A DNA stretch of 41,216 bases, taken from positions 1-41,216 of IMG/VR virus record IMGVR_UViG_3300046747_000434. One strand, written 5' to 3'. This stretch comes from a virus. Both the position numbers and the translations under genes were made by a program. Shown here piece by piece: positions 1 through 41,216 of the stretch. Each line of letters starts with the position of its first letter. Positions within the stretch are counted from its first letter, which is position 1. The notes beneath the pieces are model-generated. The model was not told the origin of the DNA. It saw only the letters and a program-made list of their open reading frames with translations, and ran no database searches.

Positions 1-125
1 CCCATCGCCTGCGAGATAGCGGCCTCCACGCACATCTTGCCATCGGCGCGTCCCACGCCAGTGCACAACCCACGCGCAAGTATCGCCTCGAATACAGGTT
101 GGTTGAATGCTGATAGATCGGTCAT
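1..125 (-). CDS. 5' fragment of an Ala-rich repeat family protein. Same sequence as the start of 40462..41214, so not an extra copy if the genome is circular.
   Basis: ATG at 125..123. Encodes MTDLSAFNQPVFEAILARGLCTGVGRADGKMCVEAAISQAMG, identical to the 40462..41214 N-terminus. Confidence 0.7.
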   Translation of the reverse strand, partial: MTDLSAFNQPVFEAILARGLCTGVGRADGKMCVEAAISQAM

Positions 126-127
126 TT
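1..127. repeat. Exact 127-bp terminal direct repeat (identical to 41090..41216); probably a circular-contig overlap
   Basis: Letter-by-letter identity of the first and last 127 nt. The same sequence also occurs at 31894..32020. Confidence 0.9.
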
Positions 128-648: not shown

Positions 649-870
649 TCATGGCGTCAACAGCACGGTCTTCGTTCCGATCGCGAATGTGTTGCTTCGC
701 ATCAGCGCCGTCAGCTCGTTTTGCGAGTGCACGCCGAGTTTGCCGAACACGTGCTTGAGGTGATTGCGCGCGGTGTGCTTGCTGATGCCGAGCTTGGTGG
801 CGACGGCGGTGAGCGTCATGCCAGAGCACAGGCAGTCTGCGATCTCGCGCTCGCGTGGGCTGAGCTTCAT
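649..870 (-). CDS. LuxR/GerE-family helix-turn-helix transcriptional regulator (73 aa)
   Basis: LSPREREIADCLCSGMTLTAVATKLGISKHTARNHLKHVFGKLGV is a typical GerE HTH. Its ATG overlaps the stop of 867..1667 (ATGA). Confidence 0.85.
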   Translation of the reverse strand: MKLSPREREIADCLCSGMTLTAVATKLGISKHTARNHLKHVFGKLGVHSQNELTALMRSNTFAIGTKTVLLTP

Positions 871-1667
871 TTGCACGCCTCCATCAGCTCGATCAGCTTG
901 TCGGCCATGCGCGCGTGGTGCCTCCTGGCAGCAGCTCCAGCAGCGTCAGCAGCAGCGTCAGCAGCGCGAGCAGCGCGAGCAGCGCGAGCAGCTCCAGCAG
1001 CGTAATCAGCAGCGGAAGCAGCGTCAGCAGCAGCGTAAGCAGCAGCGTAAGCAGCGGAAGCAGCAGCGTAAGCAGCAGCGCGAGCAGCTCCAGCAGCGCG
1101 AGCAGCTCCAGCAGCGTAAGCAGCAGCGGAAGCAGCGCGAGAAGCAGCGCACCACTCAGTTGCGCTCGGCTCGTCTCCCGCAATGCGCCGCTCGAACAGC
1201 GCCACCACGGTAGCGATTGCGGCCTTAACTGCATCGTCAGCATGCCTGACCACGCCATGCCTCGGATCGCTGAGCATCCACACGGCGAGGCGCGGCCACA
1301 CCAGCGACAGGTCAGCGCCCGTCGTGATAGATTTCGCGAAGCGCTGCGGCCACAGCTTCGCGCGCGCCTTGGATTGCCTCTCGAACAAGCGATCCTGCAG
1401 GTATGCCAGCTCAATCGGTATGCCGAGACGCTCTGCTAGCGCCGTGTGGTTCGAATATGCGCCGATGTCCCGCTCGCGCAGGTCGACGTGATCGATGCGC
1501 GCAATGCTCCGCAGGCCGCATGCGACCGCGCAGCCGCGCCATTCCTTGCCCTCGCCGTGTCCGTACGAGCCTTGGCTGATGGCGTCCATGCGCGCGTGCC
1601 ACGCCAGTTCACGCAGGAAGCGCGCGCGGAATGCCTTATCACCGTTGTATCCGACTAGATTAGTCAT
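867..1667 (-). CDS. Ala-rich periodic-repeat protein, divergent paralog P1 (266 aa)
   Basis: C-terminal AAYAAGAARAAGAARAAAYAAASAAYAAAYAAADAASAADYAAGAARAARAARAADAA repeat. The N-terminal domain differs from the other three copies. Confidence 0.8.
   Translation of the reverse strand: MTNLVGYNGDKAFRARFLRELAWHARMDAISQGSYGHGEGKEWRGCAVACGLRSIARIDHVDLRERDIGAYSNHTALAERLGIPIELAYLQDRLFERQSKARAKLWPQRFAKSITTGADLSLVWPRLAVWMLSDPRHGVVRHADDAVKAAIATVVALFERRIAGDEPSATEWCAASRAASAAAYAAGAARAAGAARAAAYAAASAAYAAAYAAADAASAADYAAGAARAARAARAADAAADAAGAAARRHHARMADKLIELMEACK
921..1152 (-). repeat. GCT-rich (plus-strand GCAGC) coding microsatellite-like array inside P1
   Basis: Runs of gcagcagcgtaagcagc / gcgagcagc units. 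Several reading frames stay open across it (see the overlapping track ORFs 764..1213, 893..1414 and 915..1439). Confidence 0.85.
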
Positions 1668-1927
1668 TCTGCTGATCCAATCTTGTTTGCGGCCTCGAGA
1701 GCGAGCTCAAGCGTGGACGCTGCGACAGCGTGAGAACCGATCGGCGTCTGCGGGTACCAATGCACCACCCATACCTGTCCGGTGGCTAACATGGTCTCCC
1801 TGTCGACGAGATCAGCGGTGTTCCAACAGTCCCCAATCCACTCGGCTACGCTCTCGTAGTTGGTGGCGTGCGGCTGGTGCTCGATCGTGAGATTGATGTG
1901 CTTCGGAAGCGTCTGCGTGCTGGTCAT
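1664..1927 (-). CDS. Hypothetical protein, 87 aa
   Basis: GGAGGGAAC RBS before the ATG at 1927. Its stop overlaps the P1 start (ATGA). Confidence 0.6.
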   Translation of the reverse strand: MTSTQTLPKHINLTIEHQPHATNYESVAEWIGDCWNTADLVDRETMLATGQVWVVHWYPQTPIGSHAVAASTLELALEAANKIGSAE

Positions 1928-1957
1928 GTTCCCTCCACCAGCCAACCTACGCTACGC

Positions 1958-2215
1958 TCACCTGGGCTGCAAGCGGTAATCGAGCGCCTCTTGGACGGCG
2001 CGTCGGATTGCCTCGCTGTGGGTGACGCCCATGGCACTGGCCAGGCGCTCGAGGCGCAGCTCGTCGGCTGGGCACAGGCGCAGCGTGCGCACGTGCGTGG
2101 TTGGCCCACTGGGGTCTCGCGGTACTGGGCCGGGGCGTTTGCCAGGGGGTTCCACGATCACGCGCAGCTCTTTGGAGGGCCGGGGCTTGGGGCCGCTTCG
2201 CTTGGCGACAGTCAT
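1958..2215 (-). CDS. Ribbon-helix-helix (CopG/Arc-like) DNA-binding protein, 85 aa
   Basis: TLRLCPADELRLERLASAMGVTHSEAIRRAVQEAL fits a strand-helix-helix pattern. ATGA overlap with the upstream gene. Confidence 0.6.
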   Translation of the reverse strand: MTVAKRSGPKPRPSKELRVIVEPPGKRPGPVPRDPSGPTTHVRTLRLCPADELRLERLASAMGVTHSEAIRRAVQEALDYRLQPR

Positions 2216-2385
2216 GCTCGCGCCTCCTCTTTCTCGGCGTCGGCGTCGGCATAGCTCGCCCGCGGCGCCGCGCCCATTACCCGGGTATAGCAGCGCGTGC
2301 ACAGCTCGACGTAGTGGGCGCCGTCATCCTCCGCGTCTACGGCGTAGGTACTGCCCCCGCCGTCTCCTCCGCATGATCCGCACAT
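2212..2385 (-). CDS. Small CxxC...CxxC protein, 57 aa (possible zinc ribbon)
   Basis: Hand-translated as MCGSCGGDGGGSTYAVDAEDDGAHYVELCTRCYTRV... Coupled at both ends (TGATG and ATGA). Confidence 0.45.
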   Translation of the reverse strand: MCGSCGGDGGGSTYAVDAEDDGAHYVELCTRCYTRVMGAAPRASYADADAEKEEARA

Positions 2386-2690
2386 CACGAATTCTCCGAT
2401 GCGCGCTCGGCGCGAATGCGTGCGCGGGTTTCTTTGATGCGCGTCGTAAGTTCGCGCTTCATTTCCTCGGCGACTTTGGCCGCGTCGCAGACAGTATCGA
2501 GGCGACGCGCTACGGTATTCTCACGCTTCGAGTCGCGCACTACCGCGTGCACGTGCCAGATCTTCTCGACGGTGCCCACATAGGACCCGTCGGCGTTTTT
2601 CGGCGCGAAGTCGGTGTACTTCGCGATGGCCTCGACGCCAGGTGCACCCAATGCCGCCGCCAACTCAATCGCCTGTTCTCTGCTCAGCAT
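2385..2690 (-). CDS. Hypothetical protein, 101 aa
   Basis: Track ORF with a CAGGAGAC RBS before the ATG at 2690. Confidence 0.6.
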   Translation of the reverse strand: MLSREQAIELAAALGAPGVEAIAKYTDFAPKNADGSYVGTVEKIWHVHAVVRDSKRENTVARRLDTVCDAAKVAEEMKRELTTRIKETRARIRAERASENS

Positions 2691-2738
2691 GGTCAGTCTC
2701 CTGGTCTGGCGAACCCCTCGTCCGCCTCACAAGAACCA

Positions 2739-2766
2739 GTATTACCTATCTGCTGACCATACGCAA
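2739..2766 (-). promoter_or_regulatory. Candidate sigma70-like promoter (TTGCGT-16-TAATAC on the minus strand)
   Basis: Located in the lower-GC 89-bp gap upstream of 2385..2690. An alternative GTGACA-16-TATGGT lies just upstream. Confidence 0.3.
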
Positions 2767-2779
2767 TACCGATTACTTG

Positions 2780-2962
2780 TCACTTCGGGCCAAGCTTGAT
2801 CTCGTCCCATGGGTCTCGGTGATCGAGCTGCTTGGCGGCCTCGAGAGCGAGAGATGCACGGGATTGGCGCTGAGCCCAGGAGCGGCGCTGTTCCGCGCGT
2901 GCTCGGAGCTTCAGGCCATGGACGAATTGCGCGCGCGGGGTTTGCTTCTCACGCTTTGGCAT
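2780..2962 (-). CDS. Hypothetical basic protein, 60 aa (MPKREKQTPRAQF...)
   Basis: Internal ATG of ORF 2780..3082, preceded by AAGGTGG. Confidence 0.45.
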   Translation of the reverse strand: MPKREKQTPRAQFVHGLKLRARAEQRRSWAQRQSRASLALEAAKQLDHRDPWDEIKLGPK

Positions 2963-3104
2963 CGGCCACCTTGCAGCGGGCGACGATGTCCCGGAAGAGC
3001 CAGATCTTGAGCAAGCCATCGGCGACGCGCTCGACAGTGGCGCCGTCGCCGAGGTTGTCGATGCGCCTGCCCCAGCTGCCATTGATGTGCTGGACCAGCT
3101 CCAT
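2949..3104 (-). CDS. Hypothetical protein, 51 aa (MELVQHINGSWGRRIDNLGDG...)
   Basis: Hand-translated. Its ATG overlaps the stop of 3104..3493 (TGATG). Confidence 0.4.
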   Translation of the reverse strand: MELVQHINGSWGRRIDNLGDGATVERVADGLLKIWLFRDIVARCKVADAKA

Positions 3105-3493
3105 CACCGTGCCTTCATCCTGGCGAGCAGCTCTTGCGTGATGGCACCGGCGAGCTTGCTGGTGATGAGCTCGACCATGCCCTCACCGTCTCCGCTGCGC
3201 CGGTACCGATCGAGGTCGAGCCCACGCACGGCAGTGTCGTATTCGCGGCCATTGAGCGTGAACGCGACGTGAATCGAGTGCGTGCCGCTGGCCACGTCAG
3301 GCGCCATCTCGACGGCTACAACGCTGAACGCGTTGTAGCCAACCACGTGCGCCTTGATGACGCGCTTCAGGGCGGCGGCCTCTAGCTCGCGAAGGGCCTG
3401 GACTGACGCATCAGTCGGAGCGCGATGCTCGTGCACGTCGATGCGCTCGGGACCGCTGTAGCCGTGGTTGTGCCTGGTATACCTGTCGAACAT
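3104..3493 (-). CDS. Hypothetical protein, 129 aa; first gene of the minus-strand operon
   Basis: Internal ATG (MFDRYTRHNHG...) preceded by a GGAGGTGGG RBS. The upstream part of ORF 3104..3715 does not look like protein. Confidence 0.6.
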   Translation of the reverse strand: MFDRYTRHNHGYSGPERIDVHEHRAPTDASVQALRELEAAALKRVIKAHVVGYNAFSVVAVEMAPDVASGTHSIHVAFTLNGREYDTAVRGLDLDRYRRSGDGEGMVELITSKLAGAITQELLARMKAR

Positions 3494-3705
3494 GAACCCA
3501 CCTCCAGCCGACAGCATACCGCATGCAGGCCGCCCGGACCAGCGCCGAGAGCGATGACGCAGTGCGTAGCAACTCTTGTAGCCGCACCGCGTCATGAGCT
3601 GAAGTGAGCAGTGGAAAGCAATTGCGAACAGGCCGCCTAGCGATTGACTGAGGAGACAAAAGATAGACCGAGCTACCCGGCAAAGTACGATTAATCGATT
3701 CTCAC

Positions 3706-3736
3706 TTGGATACATACATGTGGCGTGTGGTATAAG
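3706..3736 (+). promoter_or_regulatory. Candidate extended -10 promoter (TTGGAT-19-TGgTATAAG)
   Basis: TGgTATAAG at 3728-3736 in an AT-richer patch. The 10-bp palindrome CGATTAATCG (3688-3697) lies nearby. No convincing ORF follows downstream. Confidence 0.3.
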
Positions 3737-3996
3737 TTGGGTACACCCTCATGGATCCCGGATCGAAGCCCCAGAGTTGCGCCAGCTGTACACCTGGTGT
3801 TTTTGCACGTGGCGCACATGGGGTGCACCGGTTACCCGCCGAGTACAGACCAGCAAGGTCAACGCACCCCACCGTGCAATCTCCGGCGACGACGCAGCCG
3901 ACCACCCGCGACGACAGCGACCAGCGGGAGCGGGTACGTAGACGTGACGGGAAGAAGCAGACAGCACGAGGAGAGATGCAAAGGAGAGTTCGCACT

Positions 3997-4014
3997 GCGT
4001 AAAACATTACGCAC
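3997..4014. promoter_or_regulatory. 18-bp inverted repeat TGCGTA-N6-TACGCA (copy 1); operator-like
   Basis: The sequence tgcgtaaaacattacgca has the same half-sites and spacing as 4188-4205. Confidence 0.4.
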
Positions 4015-4187
4015 CTCAAGCGGTTAACCGGAAAGCCGAGCACTTGTGAGTACTTAGAGAGCGAAGCTCGAGTACAGGTGAGGTTTGAGAGAGAGCAGCT
4101 CGCGCTGGGCGGGAAGGAGAGGCCGGCGGCGCGGGCAAGAGTTGCGCCAGCTGCGCATGTTGCTGGTGTCAACATTCTCGGCGCAGG

Positions 4188-4205
4188 TGCGTAAGCTTCT
4201 ACGCA
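4188..4205. promoter_or_regulatory. 18-bp inverted repeat TGCGTA-N6-TACGCA (copy 2); operator-like
   Basis: The sequence tgcgtaagcttctacgca abuts the first iteron. Confidence 0.4.
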
Positions 4206-4312
4206 TGACATCCCGCCGCAACAGGCATGACAGCGATGTCGTGGTGGCCACCACAGTGGCCATGACATGCGTGGCGCGCAGCTATGACAGCTCACCGCGT
4301 GGGCTATGACAT
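4204..4312 (+). repeat. Array of five direct YATGACAK iterons around a 14-bp perfect palindrome
   Basis: The ATGACA core starts at 4205, 4227, 4262, 4284 and 4306 (spacings 22, 35, 22, 22). GTGGTGGCCACCAC (4241-4254) sits in the 35-bp gap. Confidence 0.55.
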
Positions 4313-4361
4313 GAGAGGAGCGCGCGCGAAGACGGGGTGGCCGTGTAAAGATCAACCGGCA

Positions 4362-4393
4362 CCCGTATCTTAGATGGGTCCCATCGATACCGG
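4362..4393 (-). terminator. Imperfect hairpin downstream of the HNH gene (possible terminator)
   Basis: CCCGTATC...GATGGGtCCCATC...GATACCGG nested inverted repeats. Only a weak T-run follows on the minus strand. Confidence 0.25.
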
Positions 4394-4433
4394 CAGAGCG
4401 TAGCGAGTGTTCACTGAAATCAGCACCGATATC

Positions 4434-4895
4434 TCAAGCAAAACGGTATCTCCTATGCTTGACGATGTCCTGCATGCGGGAGAGAGATGTTCCGTACTCC
4501 TTGGCCAGTCCTTTGGTTGACCTGCCCGCGGCGTGCTTGTCGCGCATCTCCCTGATTTGCTCGTCAGACCAGCGCCGTGAGGACTGTCTCCCCGCGGTGC
4601 ACATGTCGCGCGTGTTGTCTTCATGCGTCCCGGCGTATAGGTGCTTGGGATTGCAGCAGGCCGGGTTGTGGCAGGTGTGGAGCGCCCATAGCCCGTTGAG
4701 AGCTACGCCACCGAGCCATTCGATGGCGAACACGGGGGCGGTTCTCACGTAGCCCTGACGGCTCCAACTGAACGTCCCGCGCCCGTTCTTGAGTGCTGAC
4801 CCAGCTGTCCATGGCCAGCACTCGTCGGGACCGAGCACGGATATCTTGGACAGAAACCGCATGTAGTCTTTTGCGCTTGGTGTAGGTGAATCCAT
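4434..4895 (-). CDS. HNH endonuclease with a C-terminal HTH-like tail
   Basis: ALHTCHNPACCNPKHLYAGTHEDNTRDM is an HNH_3-type motif. The MDSPTPS start was chosen inside ORF 4434..4931. Confidence 0.85.
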   Translation of the reverse strand: MDSPTPSAKDYMRFLSKISVLGPDECWPWTAGSALKNGRGTFSWSRQGYVRTAPVFAIEWLGGVALNGLWALHTCHNPACCNPKHLYAGTHEDNTRDMCTAGRQSSRRWSDEQIREMRDKHAAGRSTKGLAKEYGTSLSRMQDIVKHRRYRFA

Positions 4896-4991
4896 ATAGC
4901 AAGCATATAGGGTACACCATATTGATGCCATTAGTTTTCAGCACCCAAATCTCGAGCATCTCTGCTACGCTACCTCTCGGAGGTGGGCGTT

Positions 4992-5336
4992 ATGCTGTCT
5001 GACTGGACGCGGGTCGAGCTTGGCGATGTTGGCGTTTGGGCTGTCCCGCGAACCCCTGCCGGTCGCGTGGCGGCTGCCGAGGCGTTGCTGCGTCCGCTCT
5101 CGCACTACGAGATGGACGAGAACGGCGACGCGGTCCCTGTGTACGGCGAGCCGCTGATCGATGCTGCTGGCTACATGGCCATCGTCTCTGGCGCATCGGT
5201 TTACAGTCCTACTGTCGCCCTCGATCTCGGTCCGCCCGACGCCCAGGAGGCGGAGATAGCGCGCTTCAACGCCGCCGTTGCTGCCAAAGACGCGACCGCG
5301 CACCGACGCACGGCCCCGCGCGGCACGTGGTGTTGA
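4992..5336 (+). CDS. Hypothetical protein, 114 aa
   Basis: GGAGGTGGG RBS before the ATG at 4992. Confidence 0.6.
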   Translation: MLSDWTRVELGDVGVWAVPRTPAGRVAAAEALLRPLSHYEMDENGDAVPVYGEPLIDAAGYMAIVSGASVYSPTVALDLGPPDAQEAEIARFNAAVAAKDATAHRRTAPRGTWC

Positions 5337-5498: not shown

Positions 5499-5741
5499 AT
5501 GAGTCCATGGCAAACGTTCGCGCCACCGCTCGGCTACAAGCTACTGCGGTCGGAGTACGGCGGCGGCAAGAGTACGCACGTGTTCGTGTCGCTCGACGGT
5601 CGTGAGGAGCGCACGTGCGAGGTGATGCCGGGCGAGGACGAGCTGCGCACGCTGGAGAAGTGGCGCGCCACGGTGCCGGCGTACGTGGAGCCGCTGCCCG
5701 AGGTGGGCGAGCCCGTGGATGTGCCACGGAAGCGCAAGTGA
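5499..5741 (+). CDS. Hypothetical protein, 80 aa
   Basis: GGGGAGG RBS before the ATG (MSPWQTF...). Confidence 0.6.
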   Translation: MSPWQTFAPPLGYKLLRSEYGGGKSTHVFVSLDGREERTCEVMPGEDELRTLEKWRATVPAYVEPLPEVGEPVDVPRKRK

Positions 5742-6038: not shown

Positions 6039-6251
6039 TTACACAGGATCCTTGTGCAGGAGGGCGCGTACGGCGCAGTCCTTTGCCTCGAGCAGCTTGC
6101 GAAGCGCGGTTGAGCGCTCAGCGCTGCGTGGTAGCTCGAGAGTCTTCTCGGCGAGCACGCAGAATGGCGCGCTGACGGCCTGTAGATGCTGTGGCAGGTG
6201 CGAGTACGCGAAAAACTGCATGATCGGCTCTGTGGTTGACTTCTCTTCCAT
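6039..6251 (-). CDS. Hypothetical protein, 70 aa
   Basis: AGGAGACAC RBS before the ATG at 6251 (MEEKSTTEPIMQFF...). Confidence 0.55.
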   Translation of the reverse strand: MEEKSTTEPIMQFFAYSHLPQHLQAVSAPFCVLAEKTLELPRSAERSTALRKLLEAKDCAVRALLHKDPV

Positions 6252-6259
6252 GTGTCTCC

Positions 6260-6619
6260 TCATTTCTCCGCTATGCGCGGCAAACACCTGAAGCCCGGCC
6301 AGTCGCGGCGCAGGTTGCTCAGCCTCGTCTCGGGCGAGATGTCGGTGGCCTTGGCCATGAACAGCTCCGCCTTCGTGAGAGGCTTGCATGGCAGCTCGTC
6401 GCCACCGTAGATCAGCCAGTTGACGTCGACCTTGTAGAAGTACGCCAGGATGCGCAGCCCACGGATATCAGCGCCGTTGATAGAGCTCTCCCACCGTGCA
6501 ATCTGCGGCTTGGTCAGCTTGGCGTACTTGGCGACGGTGAGGATGCGTAGACGACGGCACTTGCGCACGTAGCGCAGGCGACCGCCGACGGTGTTGAGGT
6601 CACAGATCTTGGTCGCCAT
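6260..6619 (-). CDS. XRE-family HTH regulator (CI/Cro-like), 119 aa
   Basis: GGRLRYVRKCRRLRILTVAKYAKLTKPQIARWESS is an HTH_3-like motif. The ATG at 6619 lies inside ORF 6260..6862. Confidence 0.7.
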   Translation of the reverse strand: MATKICDLNTVGGRLRYVRKCRRLRILTVAKYAKLTKPQIARWESSINGADIRGLRILAYFYKVDVNWLIYGGDELPCKPLTKAELFMAKATDISPETRLSNLRRDWPGFRCLPRIAEK

Positions 6620-6869
6620 CGGGTACGCCTTTCGTCGAGCCGCACGTATCGCAACAGACCTCGCCGCCGAAGTGACGGCGCACCAAACCCATACCGCAGT
6701 CGGTGCACGCGATCGCATTCCACGCTCCTTTCGGGCGAGGCTTGCCACGACCATCGTAAGCCGCGTATGGCCGCGGGTCGCGAGGAACGCAGAACTGCGA
6801 GCCTGTAGGCTTGACGAACAGGCCGGCCTGCATGCGCCCGTCGTTCCACCACTTGCGGTCACACTTCAC
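6600..6869 (-). CDS. Hypothetical Cys-rich (zinc-ribbon-like) protein, about 89 aa
   Basis: CTDCGMGLVRRHFGGEVCCDTCG. GAGAGGAGA RBS before the GTG at 6869. Confidence 0.5.
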   Translation of the reverse strand: MKCDRKWWNDGRMQAGLFVKPTGSQFCVPRDPRPYAAYDGRGKPRPKGAWNAIACTDCGMGLVRRHFGGEVCCDTCGSTKGVPDGDQDL

Positions 6870-7104
6870 GTGCAATCTCCTCTCGCTTCAGATCCACGTC
6901 GTGCAGCAGCCACAGAAGCGTCACGTCGCAGTAGCACGCCAGCTTGCACAGGTCTTCCATGGTCGGGCGCCGCGTGCCAGACTCCCACCGGTGCATGGTG
7001 CGCAGCGACACGCCCACCAGCTGCGCCAAGTCGGTCGCCGACAGGCCCGAATGCGCGCGCGCTTCGACGATGCGCTTGCGCAGCAGCCGGGTCAGGAATC
7101 GCAT
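6859..7104 (-). CDS. XRE-family HTH regulator, 81 aa
   Basis: RIVEARAHSGLSATDLAQLVGVSLRTMHRWESGTRRPTMEDLCKLA is a classic HTH_3 motif. Confidence 0.8.
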   Translation of the reverse strand: MRFLTRLLRKRIVEARAHSGLSATDLAQLVGVSLRTMHRWESGTRRPTMEDLCKLACYCDVTLLWLLHDVDLKREEIAREV

Positions 7105-7334: not shown

Positions 7335-7386
7335 AAAATCGACCAAGCGCTAGCGGCAACTCGAGTAGCCACGTACCGTGTGAGCA

Positions 7387-7914
7387 GTGGCTACCGTATC
7401 TACCACCCGCAGAGCTGGGCAGGCGTTCGACGCCTTCGAGGCTGAGCAGTACGCGCAGGCCCGGGCGAGCGGCCAGACGATCGGCGTGTCGGCTACGTCG
7501 GCTGGAGTGGGGATGGCAGCGGCCAAGACGCTGGAGAAAGACCCGGAGGTGCGCGCGCGTATTGCCGAGCTGCGCGAGGGGTCGAAGACGATCACCACGG
7601 TCAGCCCAGCGTGGATTCTCGAGCAGCTCAAGATCAACGCACTCGAGTCGCGCGAGGGCCGCGAGTACACGACGATCAACAAGGCCGGCGAGCCTGTCGA
7701 GGTGACGAGCGCGCCGAACTACAAGGCGTCGAACGAAGCGCTCCAGATGATGTATGAGATCATCAAGACAGACGACAGCATACTGAACGGTCTGGGCGGC
7801 GGACTGCCCGCGGGTTCGAAGGCGATGATGCAGGAGATCCAGAAGCGCCTGAGCGCGCCGACTCCGCAGCCGATCATCATCACGCAGCACGAAGCCGTCG
7901 AGGCTGAGCTGTGA
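7387..7914 (+). CDS. terS: Terminase small subunit
   Basis: Sits immediately upstream of TerL. N-terminal HTH-like segment, then VSPAWILEQLKINALES, which resembles Terminase_2/P27-type small subunits. GTG start. Confidence 0.7.
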   Translation: MATVSTTRRAGQAFDAFEAEQYAQARASGQTIGVSATSAGVGMAAAKTLEKDPEVRARIAELREGSKTITTVSPAWILEQLKINALESREGREYTTINKAGEPVEVTSAPNYKASNEALQMMYEIIKTDDSILNGLGGGLPAGSKAMMQEIQKRLSAPTPQPIIITQHEAVEAEL

Positions 7915-9536
7915 TGGCCAACATCCCAGTAGTGATGGGCGCCGCCATTGGGTCGCCCATGGCGTACCGGCCGAAGTGGGTGCCGAGCAACATCCCGTGG
8001 GGCGAGTGCGACCGTGAGCGGCGCATGATGCTGAACGCTGCATGGAGCGCAGGCGTTCTCGGTCATTTGCTCACGCCGTCGCAGCTGCGCACTGACGCCA
8101 AGATGGACGCCTGGAGCGATGCGGTAGGCGATAACCAGAAGCTCAGCGACCTGGACCTGCGCAAGAAGCTGATGGGCCGCGTGTACGTGCTCGACAGCGC
8201 GCGACGCTGGGGCAAGTCGCGCTTGCTACTCAAGAGGGCGCTGGCGAAGGGGATCCGCAACAAGGGCTGGCGGATGATCTATTTCGGCCCCATCAAAAAG
8301 GAGCTGCTGAAGATCGTGCATCCGCTCATGGCTGAGCTGGTGCGCGACTGCCCGCCCGGACTGCTCGGCAAGCACCAGGGGCCAGACTGGGTGGAGAAGG
8401 AGGAGGCCTACGTTTTCAAAACAGGCTCACGTCTCGAGATCATCGGCCTGGACAAGAATCCAGACGGCGCGCGCGGAACTGGCCTTGACGCTGCGTTTGG
8501 CGATGAAGTCGCGTTCTTCGACAAGCTCGAATACCTGATCAACAGCATCATCATGCCGCAGGTCATGGGCCGGCAGCACGCGCGGCTCGAGTGCGCGAGT
8601 ACGCCGCCCGTCAGCCCGTCGCACCACTGGTCACAGAACATGGTGCCGCACGCGGTCGCGGACGGTGCGCACGACAAGCGCACGATCGAAGAGGCCGATC
8701 AGTACGACACTTCGGAGATCGAGGAGATCATCCGCCAGGTTGGCGGAGACATGGGACGCAAGCACACCGCCGTGCGTCGCGAGCTGTTCTGCGAGCACGT
8801 CACCGACGAAACGCTAGCGGTCATCCCGGAGTTCAACTACGTCAAGAGCGAGGTGGTTCGAGAAATCACCGCCCCCACGTGGCGCGACTGCTACGCGTCC
8901 ATGGATCCCGGCTGGAAAGACCACACCGCCGTGCTGTTCGGGTACTGGCATTTCGAAGAGCAGGCCTGCGTGATCGAAGACGAGATCTGCGCACCGCGCC
9001 TGAACAGCGGCGATCTCGCTGCCGAGGTGAAGCGCAAGGAGGCGTTCCTGTGGGACGGCGTCAAGCGCCGCTCGTCGCAGGGGGGCCACCCGAAGCCACA
9101 GCCGTTCCTGCGCGTTACCGACCACGATCCGCGCCTGCAGCAAGATCTCGCGATGGCGCACGGGCTCGTATTCATTCCGACGCTCAAGGACAACCTCGAG
9201 CAGCAGGTCAACGCCGTGCGTGTGGCCTTTGCCAACAAGAAGATCATCATCCACCCACGTTGCACGAAGCTTGTGCTTCACCTGCAAAACGCGGTGTGGA
9301 AGAACAGGGACGCTCACATCTTCGCTCGCGAGGGCGGGAATCTCGGGCATTTCGATACGCTCGCCGCGCTCGTGTACCTGTGGCGCGTGATGCAACAGCA
9401 CAAGAACCGCAACCCAGCACCAATCGAGGCGCGCATTTATGCTCAGCGAGAAAACACCCACCAGCACCCCACGGGAAAGCCCGCTCCCCACGCCAGCCGC
9501 TGGACGCGACGCGGAAGGAGCTACTACGTCCGCTGA
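7914..9536 (+). CDS. terL: Terminase large subunit
   Basis: Walker A-like DSARRWGKS and Walker B-like LDAAFGDEVAF, plus a C-terminal nuclease-sized domain. TGATG overlap with terS (an alternative GTG lies at 7911). Confidence 0.9.
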   Translation: MANIPVVMGAAIGSPMAYRPKWVPSNIPWGECDRERRMMLNAAWSAGVLGHLLTPSQLRTDAKMDAWSDAVGDNQKLSDLDLRKKLMGRVYVLDSARRWGKSRLLLKRALAKGIRNKGWRMIYFGPIKKELLKIVHPLMAELVRDCPPGLLGKHQGPDWVEKEEAYVFKTGSRLEIIGLDKNPDGARGTGLDAAFGDEVAFFDKLEYLINSIIMPQVMGRQHARLECASTPPVSPSHHWSQNMVPHAVADGAHDKRTIEEADQYDTSEIEEIIRQVGGDMGRKHTAVRRELFCEHVTDETLAVIPEFNYVKSEVVREITAPTWRDCYASMDPGWKDHTAVLFGYWHFEEQACVIEDEICAPRLNSGDLAAEVKRKEAFLWDGVKRRSSQGGHPKPQPFLRVTDHDPRLQQDLAMAHGLVFIPTLKDNLEQQVNAVRVAFANKKIIIHPRCTKLVLHLQNAVWKNRDAHIFAREGGNLGHFDTLAALVYLWRVMQQHKNRNPAPIEARIYAQRENTHQHPTGKPAPHASRWTRRGRSYYVR

Positions 9537-9735: not shown

Positions 9736-10041
9736 ATGGAATGGATGCAAGCTTTGTGGGCCTTCGTGGCTCTGTGCGCAGTCGCCGCGTTGTGGGACGC
9801 CTTCGTGAGGAGACACGTCAATACCCATGCCGAGCGCCTCTGCGCAGAGGATCGACTGCGCGCTGAGATCCATGATCTGCGTGGAACATGCACAAACACG
9901 TTATCGGTGGCCAAGGGCCTTTGCGTCGATGTGCAGAAGCTAGAAGCATCCGACAAGCAGCGCGAGAGCGATATGATCGCGCTGTCAAACAAGGTGAATA
10001 GCGCGCATTCCGCGGCGGCGTCACGCTGGAGACGCCCATGA
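9736..10041 (+). CDS. Hypothetical membrane-anchored coiled-coil protein, 101 aa
   Basis: N-terminal hydrophobic WAFVALCAVAALW. ATGA overlap with the portal start. Confidence 0.55.
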   Translation: MEWMQALWAFVALCAVAALWDAFVRRHVNTHAERLCAEDRLRAEIHDLRGTCTNTLSVAKGLCVDVQKLEASDKQRESDMIALSNKVNSAHSAAASRWRRP

Positions 10042-12143
10042 TCATCCCCGAGAAAGAGCTGCCAGTGGAAGAGGCGTCAGAGGACGTCTACGACTGGAAG
10101 CAACACTACTGGCTGGCTCAGCCATTCATGTCGAAGGACTTCGGCGAGGAGGTATTCCGCCGCTTCGGCAAGCACGCGACGCAGTGGGACACGCATACGC
10201 CCGTTGGCGAGGCCGTGTGGACCGCCTACCGCGTCTACCACGGCCTTGTTGGCATGCCGAACGGTATGCAGATCAGCAGCCCCGTGGTGTCGCTCATGGA
10301 AACGGGAGAGTTCGGCGAGTTCCTATCGCTCACCGTGAACCAGTACCGTTCGTTGGTCCGCCACAAAATCGCGATGATCACCAGCGAGCGCATCGCATGG
10401 GACCCGCAAGCATCCACCTCCGATAGCAGCTCGGCGAAACAGGTCACGCTGTGCCGCAACCTGCTCGACTACATGTCGCGCGCCAAGCTGTTCGAACAGA
10501 AGTTCGCCGACCAGATGGAGATGTCCGAGGTCACCGGATCGGGCTTCCTTCCGATCGGATGGGATGCACGAGCGGGGTTCAATGGAGAGGGCGACGTATG
10601 GGCAGAGGTCAAGGCGCCGTGGGAGGTCTGCCACGAGAAGGTGCGCGATTACGAGACGTGCACCTGGTGGATCTTCACGCGCATGGAGTCGCGCTTCGAC
10701 TGGATCGCGCACTTCGCTGATGCGGACCCTGAGAAAGCCAAGCGCATCAGCGAGCTGGACATCGACAAGCGGCTGACCGTCGGCGTGCGCACGTCGACCG
10801 CTGAGGATGAGAACGAAGACCGCATCCCCGTGCTATACGTCTACGCCAACGCAACGAAGGCTTGCCCAAAGGGCCGGCTTGCGGTCTACGCGGCTGAGGA
10901 CATCCCGCTGATCGACGGGCCCATGCCTTACGGGCCCTATTCGCCGATCACGCGCTTGTGCGGCGGCGAGTACCTCGGAACCAGCATCCCGATTGCGAAC
11001 AGCTGGAGCCTGCTCCCCATCCAAGAGGCGGTCAATGCCGCATGGAGCGCCATCGTCACGCGGCTCGACCTCGGCGCCGTGCCAGACATCACGGCGCCCG
11101 ACGGGACCGAGTTCGAACAGGGTAGCTTCGGCGGCGCGAACCTGATCAAGACGACGCCAGGGCTCGAAAAGCCCGAGCTGCTCGACCTGCTGCAAATCCC
11201 CGGCGCCCTGCCCAATCTAGTGGAGCTGTTCACGAAGGCTGGCGAGGATCTCTTCGGCATCAACAGTGTCCAGCGCGGCAACCCTAACGAGAACATCACC
11301 AGCGGCAGCATGGCAGCCCTCGTGCAATCGATGGGCGTCCAGTTCAACTCGAGCGAGGAACGCGCCTACGTGATGAATCTCGAGGCCACCGGAACGAACC
11401 TGGTGCGCGTGATCCAACGGTGCGCGACCGAGGAGCAGATCATCTCCATCGCCGGACAAGACGAGCAGTGGACGACGCAGAAGTTCATCGGCGAGGATTT
11501 GAAGCAGGTGCTTCGCGTCGCGGTAAAGACGACCAGCGCGTTGATGAAAACGCTTACCGGGCGCAAGGAAATCGCAGATCAGCTGCTCGTCAACAAGCTG
11601 ATCGAGGACCCGCGTCAGTACCTACAGGCCATCGAGACGGGCAACCTGTCTCCGCTGTTCAGGTCCGCGGTGGATCAGCTCACGGTGATCAAGGAAGAGA
11701 ACGAACGCATGCTGCGCGGCGAGCAACCACGCGTCTTGAACTGGGACCACCACGCACTGCATGTGCGCGACCATCTGTGCCAGCTCAACACCGATGCGCG
11801 CTATGACATGCAGCGCAGCGAGTTGATCCAGAACCACATCCAAGAGCACATCGACCTGTGGGGCCAGCTCTCGCGCGAGTCGCCTGACATCCTCGAGGCC
11901 ACTGGCTGCCCACCACTCTCGCAGGCGTTTGCCGTGGGGCAACAGGCCATGCAAATGGGCGCAGGTGGCCAGCCCATCGAGCAGCCGGCGAAGGTGCAGC
12001 CAACCGCCGTCCCGGGCTCCGACGAGGCGAAAGCGCCTCCGGGACCGAAGCCAGCGCCGAAGGGCCAAGAACCGTCACAGGCAGGCCCGTCGCTGCCAAA
12101 GCCAGCCAAACCACCTAACCAGGCACAAGAGGGGATCCAATGA
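10038..12143 (+). CDS. Portal protein (701 aa)
   Basis: Size and position directly after terL and before the scaffold and coat genes (P22-like order). Pro/Ala/Lys-rich C-terminal tail. Confidence 0.8.
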   Translation: MIIPEKELPVEEASEDVYDWKQHYWLAQPFMSKDFGEEVFRRFGKHATQWDTHTPVGEAVWTAYRVYHGLVGMPNGMQISSPVVSLMETGEFGEFLSLTVNQYRSLVRHKIAMITSERIAWDPQASTSDSSSAKQVTLCRNLLDYMSRAKLFEQKFADQMEMSEVTGSGFLPIGWDARAGFNGEGDVWAEVKAPWEVCHEKVRDYETCTWWIFTRMESRFDWIAHFADADPEKAKRISELDIDKRLTVGVRTSTAEDENEDRIPVLYVYANATKACPKGRLAVYAAEDIPLIDGPMPYGPYSPITRLCGGEYLGTSIPIANSWSLLPIQEAVNAAWSAIVTRLDLGAVPDITAPDGTEFEQGSFGGANLIKTTPGLEKPELLDLLQIPGALPNLVELFTKAGEDLFGINSVQRGNPNENITSGSMAALVQSMGVQFNSSEERAYVMNLEATGTNLVRVIQRCATEEQIISIAGQDEQWTTQKFIGEDLKQVLRVAVKTTSALMKTLTGRKEIADQLLVNKLIEDPRQYLQAIETGNLSPLFRSAVDQLTVIKEENERMLRGEQPRVLNWDHHALHVRDHLCQLNTDARYDMQRSELIQNHIQEHIDLWGQLSRESPDILEATGCPPLSQAFAVGQQAMQMGAGGQPIEQPAKVQPTAVPGSDEAKAPPGPKPAPKGQEPSQAGPSLPKPAKPPNQAQEGIQ

Positions 12144-28280: not shown

Positions 28281-28657
28281 TGGACCCAACAACGTTAGTA
28301 GTCGCAGGTAGCACGATTGCTGTTGGCATCGGCGCTTTGCTCAAGGGATGGGGCAAGCGTGATGAGGCCAGCGCAGCCGGCGTGCTGGCGCTGGTCGGCC
28401 AGATCGAGGCACTGAACGGTCGATGTAACACGCTCGAGTCAGAGGTGCTCGTGCTGCGCGCTGATCTCGAGAAAGCCACCACGGACCACGCTGCAGAGCG
28501 GGAGCAGCGCATCCACTATGAGGGCCAGGTGAAGCTCCTACAGACCGAACTGGCGACCACCAAAGCGGCAGCGCGCAGGCTCACCGAGGAATGGGAACAG
28601 GACAAGCTTCGGGGGCGTCCAACGCACAGCAGCGAGCGTCCGGGCAAGCGGCGCTAG
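28280..28657 (+). CDS. Spanin-like protein (N-terminal TM plus coiled coil), 125 aa
   Basis: LVVAGSTIAVGIGALL membrane segment followed by a heptad-like coil. TGATG coupling to the endolysin gene. Confidence 0.5.
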   Translation: MDPTTLVVAGSTIAVGIGALLKGWGKRDEASAAGVLALVGQIEALNGRCNTLESEVLVLRADLEKATTDHAAEREQRIHYEGQVKLLQTELATTKAAARRLTEEWEQDKLRGRPTHSSERPGKRR

Positions 28658-29505
28658 GCCACCCCCGGGTACAGCCTGTCCAGCAATTCCACGCCCGGGC
28701 AGGCCATGTCGCGCAGTACCTGTAGGCACAGGTTAGCGCTCAGGACGAGGTACCGCTCACCAGCAGCGTAAGCAGCAGCGTCAGCAGCGCGAGCAGCGCG
28801 AGCAGCGCGAGCAGCGGAAGCAGCAGCGTAAGCAGCGCGAGCAGCAGCGTTAGCAGCAGCGTAAGCAGCAGCGTAAGCAGCAGCGTCAGCAGCGTTAGCA
28901 GCAGCGTAAGCAGCAGCGTAAGCAGCGCGAGCAGCAGCGTTAGCAGCAGCGTAAGCAGCAGCGTAAGCAGCAGCGTCAGCAGCGTTAGCAGCAGCGTAAG
29001 CAGCAGCGTAAGCAGCGGAAGCAGCAGCGTCAGCAGCGGGAGAAGCAGCGGAAGCAGCAGCGTAAGCAGCGGAAGCAGCGTCCTTGGTCCCCTCTTTTTC
29101 GCAGCGGTCGGCGGCCTCGCGGCAACGTTGGTGCACTGGCGAGGTGGCAGTGAACAGTTCGCGGAACAGCGTGGGCAGCAGCACACGGATGTGCGCCTCG
29201 GCGATACGGCGCGCGAAGTCCAACCCGTCGAGCGTATCGCTACCGAGCTGGGCGACTGCGATGTCGCGAAGCCCACGCGCGCGGGACTCGTCGCTCTCCC
29301 AGCGCTGCGAGTCGTTCAGCGTGATCTTGAAGCCGCGCACAACGGGGTTGACGCAGGCAGGGTCGTCGCCGAAGGGGAGGCCCATGGCTTGGCTGATGGC
29401 GGCCTCCACGCACATCTTGCCGTCCGGCTTACCCGCGCCAGTGCAAAGACCGCGCGCAAGTATCGCTTCGAATACAGGTTGGTTGAATGCTGATAGATCG
29501 GTCAT
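28654..29505 (-). CDS. Ala-rich periodic-repeat protein, paralog P2 (283 aa)
   Basis: N-terminal domain MTDLSAFNQPVFEAILARGLCTG..., a long AAYAAAYAAANAADAAAY... repeat, and a conserved ERYLVLSANLCLQVLRDMACPGVELLDRLYPG tail. Confidence 0.85.
   Translation of the reverse strand: MTDLSAFNQPVFEAILARGLCTGAGKPDGKMCVEAAISQAMGLPFGDDPACVNPVVRGFKITLNDSQRWESDESRARGLRDIAVAQLGSDTLDGLDFARRIAEAHIRVLLPTLFRELFTATSPVHQRCREAADRCEKEGTKDAASAAYAAASAASPAADAAASAAYAAAYAAANAADAAAYAAAYAAANAAARAAYAAAYAAANAADAAAYAAAYAAANAAARAAYAAASAARAARAARAADAAAYAAGERYLVLSANLCLQVLRDMACPGVELLDRLYPGVA
28756..29083 (-). repeat. GCT-codon repeat array in P2, including a perfect 90-bp tandem duplication (28831-28920 = 28921-29010)
   Basis: The block agcagcgcgagcagcagcgttagc...gcagcgta recurs exactly 90 nt later. 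Several reading frames are open across the array. Confidence 0.85.
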
Positions 29506-30431
29506 GTCAGGTTGCCTTTCGTGAGCTTCTGAATCTCGTGTCGCACCACCAAGTAGCTAGCCCATAAGCGCTGAGCTACCGGACGCTGGTGAAAGTCCGG
29601 CTTCGCGTACATCACCTCGCGCAGGAAGCCAGGTGGCACCTCGGTGTACTTCTTGCCGGGGTACCGCTTCGCATCGGCGGCGAAAACTGGCGGATCCATC
29701 GGGGGCGCGTGCAGTCCGTGCTCGTCTGCTGCGCCGGAGGCGATGCTGAACGCGTTGAATATCTCATCGCACAGGTCGTTGTGGCGGCCCACCCAGTCGA
29801 CGTTAGTAGTCGCAGAAGATTCCGTGCGGGACGTCGTCCCAGTCACCGAGATCGCAGCTGGGGCACCGACCGTTGGCGCGGAGCCTGGTGCCGTGTTCTG
29901 GGCATTCTTCTGGGGCTGCTCTTTTGGGCGCTCCTCGTGGTCACCTCCACCGGCCACGTCGTCAAGCGACCGCGCAACCTTGCCCGGGCGTTTCGCGGCA
30001 TGCTCGAACCGCTCGTTAGAGTCGTGCTCAGGGTCCTCTGTGACGCCACCAGCGAGCTGGCAGACGCGCAGCATGGCCGTGCGGTCGAGCGCTGTGCTCG
30101 CGATGTATGCGGCCTTGTCGCCAGCGTGAGTTGTCGCCGCGAAGGCGTACTCACGAATCTCACCGCTCTCGTGGATCAGCTCGAACACTCCGCGCCACAA
30201 CCAGACAATACTCGCTCCAGCCTTGTCGGCAACAGGCTGCGCGCACACGAAGATCACATCTTTTTGCACGAGGGTGAGACCGTACGTGAGTAGCGCCTCC
30301 CGTGCGCCGCTTGTCAGCACGTGTTCGTGGCCGACGTATGGGTAGTTCTGATGCGCGTTTTTGCCCGCCTTGTTGACGACAACCGCGCACGCGATGCGCG
30401 CCAGTTTCAGCGCTTTCCCAAGTTCGCTCAC
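29502..30431 (-). CDS. erf: Erf-like single-strand annealing protein
   Basis: N-terminal KNAHQNYPYVGHEHVLTSGAREALLTYGLTLVQ and DKAAYIASTALDRTAML fit the ERF pattern. A disordered C-terminal half. GTGA coupling to the exonuclease gene. Confidence 0.7.
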   Translation of the reverse strand: MSELGKALKLARIACAVVVNKAGKNAHQNYPYVGHEHVLTSGAREALLTYGLTLVQKDVIFVCAQPVADKAGASIVWLWRGVFELIHESGEIREYAFAATTHAGDKAAYIASTALDRTAMLRVCQLAGGVTEDPEHDSNERFEHAAKRPGKVARSLDDVAGGGDHEERPKEQPQKNAQNTAPGSAPTVGAPAAISVTGTTSRTESSATTNVDWVGRHNDLCDEIFNAFSIASGAADEHGLHAPPMDPPVFAADAKRYPGKKYTEVPPGFLREVMYAKPDFHQRPVAQRLWASYLVVRHEIQKLTKGNLT

Positions 30432-31144: not shown

Positions 31145-31284
31145 CCGGCCCGCCTCCTGACATTGAGAACGAAATGGTTAGCTACGCCAAGAGCGACCAT
31201 CAGCGCGCAACCAAATGCAGATCCATAAACAGCCTGCGATACGGCTGCGCCAAGCCAACACGCACCGCTTAGCCACAGCAGCAT
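31141..31284 (-). CDS. Small hydrophobic (membrane) protein, 47 aa
   Basis: MLLWLSGACWLGAAVSQAVYGSAFGCALMVALGVANHFVL. TGATG overlap with the P3 stop and ATGA overlap with the exonuclease start. Confidence 0.5.
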   Translation of the reverse strand: MLLWLSGACWLGAAVSQAVYGSAFGCALMVALGVANHFVLNVRRRAG

Positions 31285-41214: not shown

Positions 41215-41216
41215 TT

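Follow-up and report, generated by a model that had tools for sequence, protein, structure and literature searches.

What function could be served by almost a kilobase of DNA that encodes no protein in an otherwise compact phage genome? Positions 3494 to 4433 of the IMG/VR virus record IMGVR_UViG_3300046747_000434, a stretch of 41,216 nucleotides that was analyzed at full length and that we refer to as the window, raise this question. A preliminary description of this DNA had noted a gene-free interval of about 940 bp with a density of repeats that fit an origin of replication, a packaging site, an immunity region, or a noncoding RNA gene. Our analysis shows that the interval is noncoding and that only its right-hand ~200 bp (positions 4204-4410, hereafter the core) are conserved in relatives. 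The core is quite probably a DNA-level element recognized by protein. The region as a whole is of a known kind, namely repeat-rich noncoding control DNA located between phage early operons. For the core we tentatively favor a function as a phage replication origin, and we note that the origin, operator, and packaging interpretations cannot be separated by sequence alone.

The boundaries of the noncoding interval are well defined. On its left lies a 129-amino-acid (aa) gene on the minus strand (3104..3493), whose ATG at 3493 stands behind a GGAGGTG ribosome-binding site and whose homologs (47-60% identical, 127-132 aa) cover 97-98% of its length. This start codon is therefore fixed by both its ribosome-binding site and its full-length homologs. 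On the right, an HNH gene on the minus strand has its stop at 4434. Plots of GC content by codon position show no periodicity from 3500 to 4050 and only a weak signal at 4060-4330, and the flanking genes exhibit third-position bias. A codon log-odds model trained on 13 confident window genes gave positive scores for all 14 small genes held out to check it (+0.04 to +0.52 per codon) and negative scores for every open reading frame (ORF) of the gap in all six frames (-0.13 to -0.73 per codon). With a crude gene caller, this gap is the largest gene-free interval of the window at 916 nt, followed by intervals of 608 and 370 nt. Thus, the gene-free stretch first described is real.

The one long ORF in the interval, a 217-aa frame on the minus strand already regarded as nonsense, scores -0.42 per codon. 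A 188-aa version of it (3702-4268, minus strand) was called by a gene caller on Logan contig SRR26077926_14017, and a search of this sequence against 5.8 billion proteins returned only the protein itself. Given its negative codon score, its lack of homologs, and its Cys/Arg-rich composition, the called protein is almost certainly spurious and should not be annotated. No ORF of the gap exceeded threshold against Pfam or PHROG families (the top match, to VKOR, reached 17 bits versus a cutoff of 27.5), and tblastx comparison of the gap with all relatives produced only noise (<32 bits). Related genomes therefore carry no conserved coding ORF at this place, and the same profile and tblastx searches revealed no decayed pseudogene or endonuclease remnant.

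Relatives of the phage were traced through homologs of its large terminase subunit (TerL) to contigs from unrelated metagenomes, seven of which had DNA available (L009, L012, L013, L086, L087, L088, and L089). An equivalent gene-free region is present in all seven, measuring 0.45-1.4 kb when the HNH gene inside that of L012 is excluded and 0.45-1.9 kb when inserted endonuclease genes are included. At the same place, a further contig represented by a gene table only shows a gap of 1.07 kb. The genes flanking the region are divergent in six of the seven relatives, with a leftward operon on one side and a short rightward operon on the other; L087 is the exception. Window positions 5499-5741, which hold the second rightward gene of the window, are homologous to the first rightward gene of L012, L009, and L086, and five relatives (L009, L086, L088, L013, and L089) have no HNH gene in the region. 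This absence, together with the downstream homology, indicates that the window HNH gene is an insertion into the noncoding region, outside the conserved element, and that the true intergenic region spans 3494-4991. The 114-aa gene that follows the HNH gene is probably an insertion as well.

Because alignment of the whole region with MAFFT is unreliable at this divergence, conservation was assessed by using local high-scoring segment pairs. Positions 4324-4407 can be aligned to L012, L009, L086, L088, L087, and L013, and an nhmmer profile of the core segment finds exactly one match in each of seven genomes (E values of 1e-10 to 1e-23). The shared anatomy, read from left to right, consists of an array of TGAC(A/G) repeats, the box AGATCAAC, a tract of variable length, GTAnCTT, the palindrome GATGGGTCCCATC (replaced in L087 by GGCGGA-tagt-TCCGCC), and CAGAGCGnAGCG. 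The array includes a palindromic site, ATGACA-GCGA-TGTCRT, which in the window reads ATGACA-GCGA-TGTCgT. Same-strand TGAC(A/G) arrays occur directly upstream of AGATCAAC in L009, L086, L088, L013, L012, and L087, with repeats spaced by 13-37 bp. In L012, three palindromic versions of the motif (two of GACAT-CC-ATGTC and one of ATGACA-GCGA-TGTCAT) stand in tandem ~30 bp apart.

In the window, the array comprises five copies of YATGACA spaced by 22, 35, 22, and 22 bp. These five, all on one strand, account for most of the eight matches found on both strands of the whole window. A stretch of this kind would be expected to hold ~0.01, and hence the phased iterons pointed out earlier are nonrandom. 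The 14-bp palindrome described with them, GTGGTGGCCACCAC, occupies 4241-4254 inside the array. A 16-mer in the array, CAGCGATGTCGTGGTG (4231-4246), is 100% identical in L012 and matches at 17/18 positions (94%) in L009. A single AGAGCGnAGCG, invariably on the terL strand, is found in the window and in each of L009, L012, and L089. A low-GC patch (4410-4468) directly follows the core in the window. The corresponding region of L089 has a different arrangement, in which ~10 copies of another short palindrome, GGCTAGCC, replace the TGACA repeats while the G-tract and CAGAGCGTAGCGA are kept. A search of IMG/VR with core patterns of 16-19 nt yielded 71 chance matches, none of them related.

Several observations argue that the core acts as DNA rather than as RNA or protein. 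It is conserved without the DNA that surrounds it, its length differences among relatives are not multiples of three, it is present in a single copy, and the RNAalifold consensus energies of its two strands are -0.8 and 0 kcal/mol, which corresponds to essentially no structure. We therefore consider it probable that the core is a binding element for protein, as judged from these patterns of conservation. In agreement with the original impression, the repeats are mostly nonrandom and of the protein-binding type. However, they do not share one fate in relatives: the iterons and the sequence adjoining the palindrome are conserved, whereas a 16-bp direct repeat, two TGCGTA-N6-TACGCA sites, and the palindrome CGATTAATCG, all of which lie farther left, are not.

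The architecture of the core matches no described family that was testable. A PhoB-type pho box was considered because ATGACAG reads CTGTCAT on the complementary strand, but the units stand 22 bp apart instead of 11 and lack adjacent pairs. A site for integration host factor at ATCAAC lacks the TTR part of the consensus. A lambda-like nut site is suggested by CGCTCTG-N7-GATGGGACCCATC on the minus strand, which resembles boxA-boxB, but the element is single-copy and two per genome are needed; as read from sequence, hairpin variants at this element favor opposite strands in L009 and L012. An attP function was rejected given that no integrase was found among the ORFs scanned and that the G-tract 19-mer had no match when GTDB genomes were scanned. 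The LuxR/GerE-type helix-turn-helix (HTH) protein and the Sigma70_r4-matching protein of this phage are candidate leads for a putative protein that binds the core. Both folds recognize -35-like sequences of the TTGACA type, which the xTGACA repeats of the core resemble.

A noncoding RNA gene is a highly improbable reading. This reading holds that an RNA is transcribed rightward from ~3740, either as a free-standing transcript or as a primer RNA resembling those of ColE1 or mycobacteriophages, with an R-loop at the G-tract ~610 nt downstream. The plus strand of the gap is indeed purine-rich (AT skew of +0.21 to +0.26, GC skew of +0.09 to +0.14), like other window DNA transcribed in that direction, and its fold z-score is -2.0, compared to -1.3 for the minus strand (20 shuffles only). 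Moreover, in five of seven relatives the core ranks among the most G-rich plus-strand segments of the locus (within the top 0.3-5% of 250-nt windows), and noncoding, RNA-based origins have been documented in integrase-less mycobacterial prophages (PMC7157519). An RNA-primed origin thereby stays in view as a minor option. However, the window core has no G-tract and a GC skew of only 0.07, there is neither conserved structure nor covariation in the core, the ~600 nt between the candidate promoter and the core have no counterpart in relatives, and no plus-strand terminator lies inside the gap. Rfam gave no match at the gathering score in the window or six relatives except for a tRNA-Pro in L009, and at E ≤ 10 it returned only two implausible eukaryotic families.

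The promoter proposed for this RNA fares no better. The extended -10-like TGgTATAAG (3728-3736) is present in its AT-rich patch as described, but it lacks the conserved last T of the -10 box (the invariant T at -7), was missed by a promoter scan of positions 3000-5200 that found no sigma-70-like site, and is not conserved in relatives. Thus, an RNA gene expressed from position 3731 finds little favor with these data. A 9-mer, GGGTACACC, at 3739 and 4910 near TATA-like boxes was also considered as an initial transcribed sequence and was dropped, as it has only two copies and the relatives are unsupportive. The tRNA-Pro gene (CGG) of L009 lies at 321-397 on the minus strand, ~1.1 kb to the left of the noncoding region, and none is found in the window or the other relatives.

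Several features of the core lead us to favor, tentatively, a replication origin. First, five same-strand repeats are phased at 22/35/22/22 bp, with an adjacent palindrome and low-GC patch, and a 22-bp periodicity is typical of iteron origins. Second, the GATC in the core is conserved and the phage encodes a Dam methylase. Third, the core is single-copy. Fourth, in L087 it sits just upstream of replication genes, ~310 bp before a 300-aa protein that is followed by an IstB/DnaC-like loader. Judged by eye, the 300-aa protein, which has no Pfam match, is a possible replication organizer. The spacing between the core and the rightward promoter appears immaterial, since a homing endonuclease gene is tolerated between them in the window and other nuclease genes occupy different places of the region in L012 and L086. 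Pfam and PHROG scans of ORFs also recognized no integrase or partition genes, and integrase-less prophages are documented to use noncoding origins (PMC7157519).

In the favored reading, the interval forms part of a ~1.5-kb noncoding hub between the leftward and rightward early operons of a ~41-kb phage. A putative sequence-specific protein would load cooperatively on the phased repeats along one helix face, the TGACA-type half-sites of the window being on the same strand and spaced by two helical turns. The palindrome and G-tract module may then serve as the site of duplex distortion or priming, and divergent transcription from the flanking promoters could assist opening.

A number of observations weigh against an origin. 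There is no adjacent initiator in the window: the flanking genes encode a 129-aa protein of unknown function and the HNH protein, and the replication genes are at 33.7-37.8 kb. The replication modules also appear to differ among these phages: there is an SF2 helicase here, L087 has an organizer and DnaC-like loader, and the P0021 contig carries a DnaG/AAA_25 primase-helicase. If the core were read by a module-specific initiator, its persistence alongside such different modules would be unexpected. Relatives do not retain the 22-bp phasing, and only 7-8 bp are conserved per repeat. The DnaA box TTATCCACA, searched with up to two mismatches, is missing from the window gap and is not enriched in any of the relatives. 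No clear AT-rich unwinding element is apparent in the relatives, the 4410-4468 patch being restricted to the window. Finally, the cumulative-skew minimum near 2808-3486 needs no cause other than the switch in transcription direction and offers no independent support.

A broader suggestion is one that we regard as distinctly unlikely. The core may represent a new family of phage cis-elements, read by a putative conserved protein or by host machinery, that would serve a clade of uncultured ~41-kb phages either as a packaging signal or as a module-independent origin (for example, one primed at the G-tract by transcription or an R-loop), and that would be the target attracting three endonuclease families.

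The transcriptional setting bears on both the favored origin and its main competitor. At the right end of the region, the first rightward gene of the window, L009, L088, and L086 is preceded by TGCTACGCT, an extended -10 sequence of the form TGnTAnnnT. Fifteen sites of this form exist in the window, and five of them are in short intergenic regions and aimed at the next gene. Sites of this form that stand a short way upstream of early genes, in their direction, lie at 4963 and 5387 (plus strand) and at 7254, 7311, and 39929 (minus strand) in the window, at 2233 and 2401 in L009, at 6289, 7317, and 7473 in L088, and at 7306 in L086. TGnTAnnnT is thus probably the early promoter signature of the clade. 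At the left end, TGCTACGCA and TGCTCACTT resemble this extended -10 motif as imperfect minus-strand copies and are the strongest candidates for a leftward promoter, and by eye positions 3589-3615 match L009 1531-1556 and L012 ~2003-2024. We predict that the two ends of the region, at 3563-3612 and 4963, probably carry promoters that face outward, in which case the DNA between them may be untranscribed.

With such promoters at its ends, the region could instead be an early-gene operator or enhancer array, in which the TGACA sites and palindromes bind a transcription factor that controls both flanking promoters, possibly by looping. We regard this explanation as possible but doubtful. Candidate factors include the HTH proteins encoded at 6260-7104, the LuxR-type protein, the Sigma70_r4-matching protein, or a host factor. 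The position of the region between divergent early operons in six of seven relatives speaks for an operator, the three tandem palindromes of L012 look like a tripartite operator, and the two perfect 18-bp palindromes of the window have typical HTH-dimer geometry. In addition, the half-site TACGCA recurs in the -10-like TGCTACGCA (3571, minus strand) and TGCTACGCT (4963, plus strand), xTGACA resembles a -35 box in a phage that encodes sigma-region-4-like and LuxR-like proteins, and the HTH proteins are conserved across the clade. Nevertheless, no site overlaps a candidate promoter, and the two 18-bp palindromes, O1 and O2, are 425 and 775 bp away. The iteron array precedes the rightward promoter by 60-300 bp in relatives and by 650 bp in the window through the HNH insertion, and tolerance of an endonuclease gene between core and promoter is hard to reconcile with this function. 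Furthermore, the region adjoins no regulator gene, the CI-like proteins share only 28-48% identity while the TGAC core remains constant, and the L087 region is not divergent.

Packaging is another function that could tie a single-copy element to this place. The core might be a pac site or concatemer junction, where the small terminase subunit (TerS) would bind the array and TerL would cut close by, possibly within the tract bordered by short inverted repeats. The core co-occurs with conserved terS-terL genes across TerL identities of 49-70% while the neighboring and replication genes are mosaic, but this association is partly built in, the relatives having been found through TerL. It always lies upstream of terS in the same strand orientation, and six genomes place it at a distance of 2.1-3.8 kb from the start of terL; in L089 and L013, however, this distance grows to 7.5-8.5 kb. 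An array of repeats next to the cleavage region is characteristic of SPP1 pac and lambda cosB, and the combination of GATC and Dam recalls P1 pac. In phages with related terminases, though, pac sites are usually in or next to terS, and the core precedes that gene by 3.0 kb in the window and by 1.6-8.2 kb in relatives. Nor does any contig in any assembly end in the core; ends fall in paralog repeats or at arbitrary places. The match of TerL to Terminase_6N is weak and nothing points to cos-type ends. An HK97-type HNH-cos-terminase module was not found here, as the HNH protein is of the zf-His_Me_endon/HNH_3 homing type and its gene is on the strand opposite terS. On balance, we judge packaging to be unlikely.

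The remaining ~600 bp at the left of the interval pose a separate problem, since most of the repeats first described there are peculiar to this phage. The exact 16-bp direct repeat AGAGTTGCGCCAGCTG is present at both places named (3773-3788 and 4138-4153), and only ~1e-4 such pairs are expected by chance in 940 bp. It forms the core of three degenerate ~55-nt copies, designated Ra, Rb, and Rc. Local alignment of the reverse complement of 3535-3590 with 4126-4191 scores 33, compared to 18 ± 2.2 (maximum 26) for shuffled sequences. The two TGCGTA-N6-TACGCA sites noted before, O1 and O2, are both exact and are the only two in the window, with no other even when two mismatches are allowed. The palindrome CGATTAATCG at 3688-3697 exists as well, but it is at chance level, as one 10-bp palindrome is expected per ~1 kb. 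Three of the 14 low-GC patches of the window fall in the region, one of them the AT-rich patch at 3677-3738.

None of the left part, including the ~55-nt repeats, both 18-bp palindromes, and the purine-rich strand, has a counterpart in any relative, save for two small islands at 3589-3615 (L009 and L012) and 3696-3709 (L009 and L088). The second of these, CGATTC-TCACTTGG, is common to L009 1561-1579 and L088 ~5700-5718 with a 4-nt indel (by eye). No relative has the 16-bp repeat, the TGCGTA palindromes, the AT-rich patch, or CGATTAATCG, so that these features cannot define the conserved element. We read the phage-specific left part as accessory operator or spacer DNA.

Two other candidate motifs were examined and set aside. 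The sequence TGGCGCAACTCTTGC at 4135-4149 (minus strand), inside the 16-bp repeat, is the sole exact TGGCNC-N5-TTGC of the window and recalls a sigma-54 promoter. However, it is at chance level, with 18 one-mismatch matches versus 18.6 expected, and the other repeat copies lack the -12 GC. Chi-like octamers, GCTGGTGG in the L086 and L088 arrays and GCTGGCGC in the 16-bp repeat, are scattered through all loci without enrichment.

It is also conceivable, though improbable, that most of this DNA is functionless, with the left ~600 bp consisting of decayed insertions at a homing-endonuclease hot spot and the repeats being leftovers of duplication. Such a history would accommodate the lack of conservation of the left part in any relative, the variation in region length from 0.45 to 1.9 kb with the endonuclease genes of the window and L012 included, and the occupation of the region by three unrelated nuclease genes in three phages. 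Against it, neither tblastx nor profile searches revealed any trace of a decayed gene, decay does not yield two perfect 18-bp palindromes and an exact 16-bp repeat, and every relative retains a long gene-free region in a genome that is otherwise compact. For the conserved core, this reading is inapplicable.

The nuclease genes themselves differ from one phage to another. The window HNH gene, with a codon score of ~0, is unlike other genes, as would be expected of imported DNA. L012 has a different HNH gene (PF01844; 1557-1922) near the left end of its region, pointing away from the core, and L086 has a GIY-YIG-like ORF (6236-6997) at the left edge that reaches 21.7 bits versus a Pfam cutoff of 22.6. 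With three unrelated families in one noncoding region of three phages, this looks like a homing-endonuclease hot spot beside a conserved core. Rfam gave no match to a group I intron or other known RNA beside the HNH gene. The coordinates of these and other features are collected in Table 1.

Table 1. Coordinates of the noncoding region, its elements, selected genes of the window, and the equivalent regions of relatives
Feature	Position	Strand	Remarks
Noncoding interval	3494..4433		Left and central part of longer intergenic region 3494-4991
Ra, inverted degenerate ~55-nt copy	3535..3590	-	Overlaps 13-nt inverted repeat 3554-3566 / 3583-3595
Probable leftward promoter region	3563..3612	-	TGCTACGCA 3571->3563; TGCTCACTT-CAGCTC-ATG 3612->3593
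Terminator-like hairpin, then T-run	3667..3681	-	Weak: 2 hits vs 1.1 expected by chance
Left island CGATTC-TCACTTGG	3696..3709		Overlaps end of CGATTAATCG
Putative promoter of the preliminary description, TTGGAT-N18-TATAAG preceded by TG	3707..3736	+	In AT-rich patch 3677-3738
Rb, direct ~55-nt copy	3773..3828	+	Exact 16-mer at 3773-3788
Palindromic site O1, TGCGTAAAACATTACGCA	3996..4013		TGCGTA-N6-TACGCA
Rc, direct ~55-nt copy	4126..4191	+	Exact 16-mer at 4138-4153
Palindromic site O2, TGCGTAAGCTTCTACGCA	4188..4205		Inverted relative to O1, 18/21 identical
Iteron array, five YATGACA	4204..4311	+	Starts at 4204, 4226, 4261, 4283, 4305
Conserved island	4345..4410	+	AGATCAAC box, variable tract, palindrome, CAGAGCGTAGCG
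AGATCAAC	4349-4356		Contains GATC
Variable tract	4357-4372		CGGCACCCG in window; 8-11 G in most relatives
Palindrome GATGGGTCCCATC	4373-4385		13 bp
CAGAGCGTAGCG	4394-4405		
His-Me finger / HNH_3-type homing endonuclease gene	4434..4931	-	Alternative start 4862; Pfam and PHROG matches
Probable rightward promoter, TGCTACGCT	4963..4971	+	Extended -10-like, 21 nt upstream of 4992 start codon
LuxR/GerE-type HTH	649-876	-	
Two XRE-type HTH genes (Cro-like, CI-like)	6260-6619, 6859-7104	-	
terS	7387-7914		Profile scans (Pfam/PHROGs)
terL	7911-9536		Terminase_6N match weak; structural genes downstream
Erf-like and RecE-like genes	29502-31144	-	
Dam methylase	33712-34176		
SF2 helicase	34180-35781		
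171-aa protein	36934-37449	+	Matches Sigma70_r4 in two stretches
RusA	37446-37799		
Gene-free region of L012	1086-2955		TerL 70% identical to window
Gene-free region of L009	1536-2428		TerL 61% identical
Gene-free region of L013	805-1742		TerL 57% identical
Gene-free region of L086	6998-7454		TerL 57% identical
Gene-free region of L088	5678-6317		TerL 51% identical
Gene-free region of L089	~1701-3113		1.4 kb; IMG/VR relative; TerL 51% identical
Gene-free region of L087	6594-7180		TerL 49% identical

The window is a tailed-phage genome of ~63% GC. Its first 127 bases (1-127) are identical to its last 127 (41090-41216), which indicates a circular assembly overlap at k = 127, so that the real genome measures 41,089 bp and the window ends are uninformative regarding physical termini. 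No close cultured relative was found: the best TerL match among GenBank phages is 24% identical, blastn of the gap against GenBank phages gave no match, and a TerL search of GTDB genomes yielded nothing useful. A 701-aa ORF (10038-12143) among the structural genes is taken to be the portal. Pfam and PHROG scans recognized neither an integrase nor a partition protein nor a Rep-type initiator among the window ORFs that they covered. The whole window contains 282 GATC sites versus 138 expected from base composition, or about twice as many, an excess in line with protection by the phage-encoded Dam methylase rather than avoidance.

Four paralogous genes lie on the minus strand (867-1667, 28654-29505, 31284-32036, and 40462-41214). 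Three of them (867-1667, 31284-32036, and 40462-41214) match phrog_3416, of unknown function, and the fourth, 28654-29505, has no PHROG match and was grouped by sequence. All but 867-1667 have near-identical 5′ ends (MTDLSAFNQPVFE...), window positions 1-127 being the same as 31894-32020 and 41090-41216, and all four encode C-terminal Ala-rich AAYAAA(N/S/D)AA tandem repeats. Logan contig SRR26077926_14017 is an independent assembly of the same phage, and both of its ends adjoin paralog repeat arrays. Elsewhere, an inverted repeat, GTAGCCAC-N14-GTGGCTAC (7365-7394), spans the terS start codon and is a candidate operator; GTGGCTAC occurs three times in the window, and the motif is also found upstream of terS in L009 and twice in the noncoding region of L012. 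The second-largest stretch without a gene positive by the codon model, 39854-40461 (608 bp), holds a 142-aa minus-strand ORF (39883-40311) without a family match and a TGTTACAAT box at 39929 (minus strand).

Noncoding control DNA of uncultured phages is almost never annotated, and the region described here is a stable, position-conserved feature of a clade represented by metagenomes only, with a defined core of ~200 bp. If this core is an origin or packaging signal, it would provide a handle for vectors, for prediction of genome termini, and for learning how mosaic phages match cis-sites to machinery. The presence of three nuclease families in one region also offers a natural example of homing endonucleases settling in tolerant DNA beside a conserved target.

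Among known systems, the iteron origins of phage lambda and of plasmids P1, F, RK2, and R6K are similar to the core in having several short repeats in the same orientation, ~22 bp apart in the window, with a palindrome and low-GC patch beside the array, a GATC in a phage that encodes Dam methylase, and a single copy. They differ in that classical origins conserve 17-22 bp per repeat compared to 7-8 bp here, where the phasing is not kept in relatives and no DnaA boxes were found. Likewise, the lambda origin is inside gene O and plasmid iterons are beside rep, whereas no initiator overlaps or adjoins the core.

The RNA-based origins of cluster A mycobacteriophages (PMC7157519) resemble the present region in that they occupy a noncoding stretch of several hundred base pairs, at or near early promoters, with dense direct and inverted repeats and no recognizable integrase. 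They express a noncoding RNA beside parABS, whereas the region examined here has neither parABS nor a conserved RNA fold. Lactococcal phages of the c2/sk1 type have intergenic origins that share the same general likenesses. In both of these groups the origins were defined experimentally, whereas the core is known from its sequence.

The pac and cos regions, such as SPP1 pacL-pacC-pacR, lambda cosB, and P1 pac with its Dam-methylated hexamers, share with the core a repeat array beside a partly symmetric segment, a conserved GATC, and inheritance with terminase genes. Their location is in or beside terS, whereas 2-8 kb separate the core from that gene. The OL and OR operators of lambdoid phages are likewise found between leftward and rightward early operons, carry multiple palindromes of 16-18 bp, and have sites that differ between related phages. 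However, the region here is 5-10 times longer, contains no repressor gene (the HTH genes being at 6260-7104), and has its sites away from the candidate promoters. Finally, the free-standing homing endonuclease genes of T-even and other phages are comparable to the HNH and GIY-YIG-type ORFs seen here, which stand between conserved genes and are present or absent among relatives, and the window HNH gene has atypical codon usage. This comparison explains the HNH gene only and not the noncoding DNA around it, where three nuclease families converge on one region.

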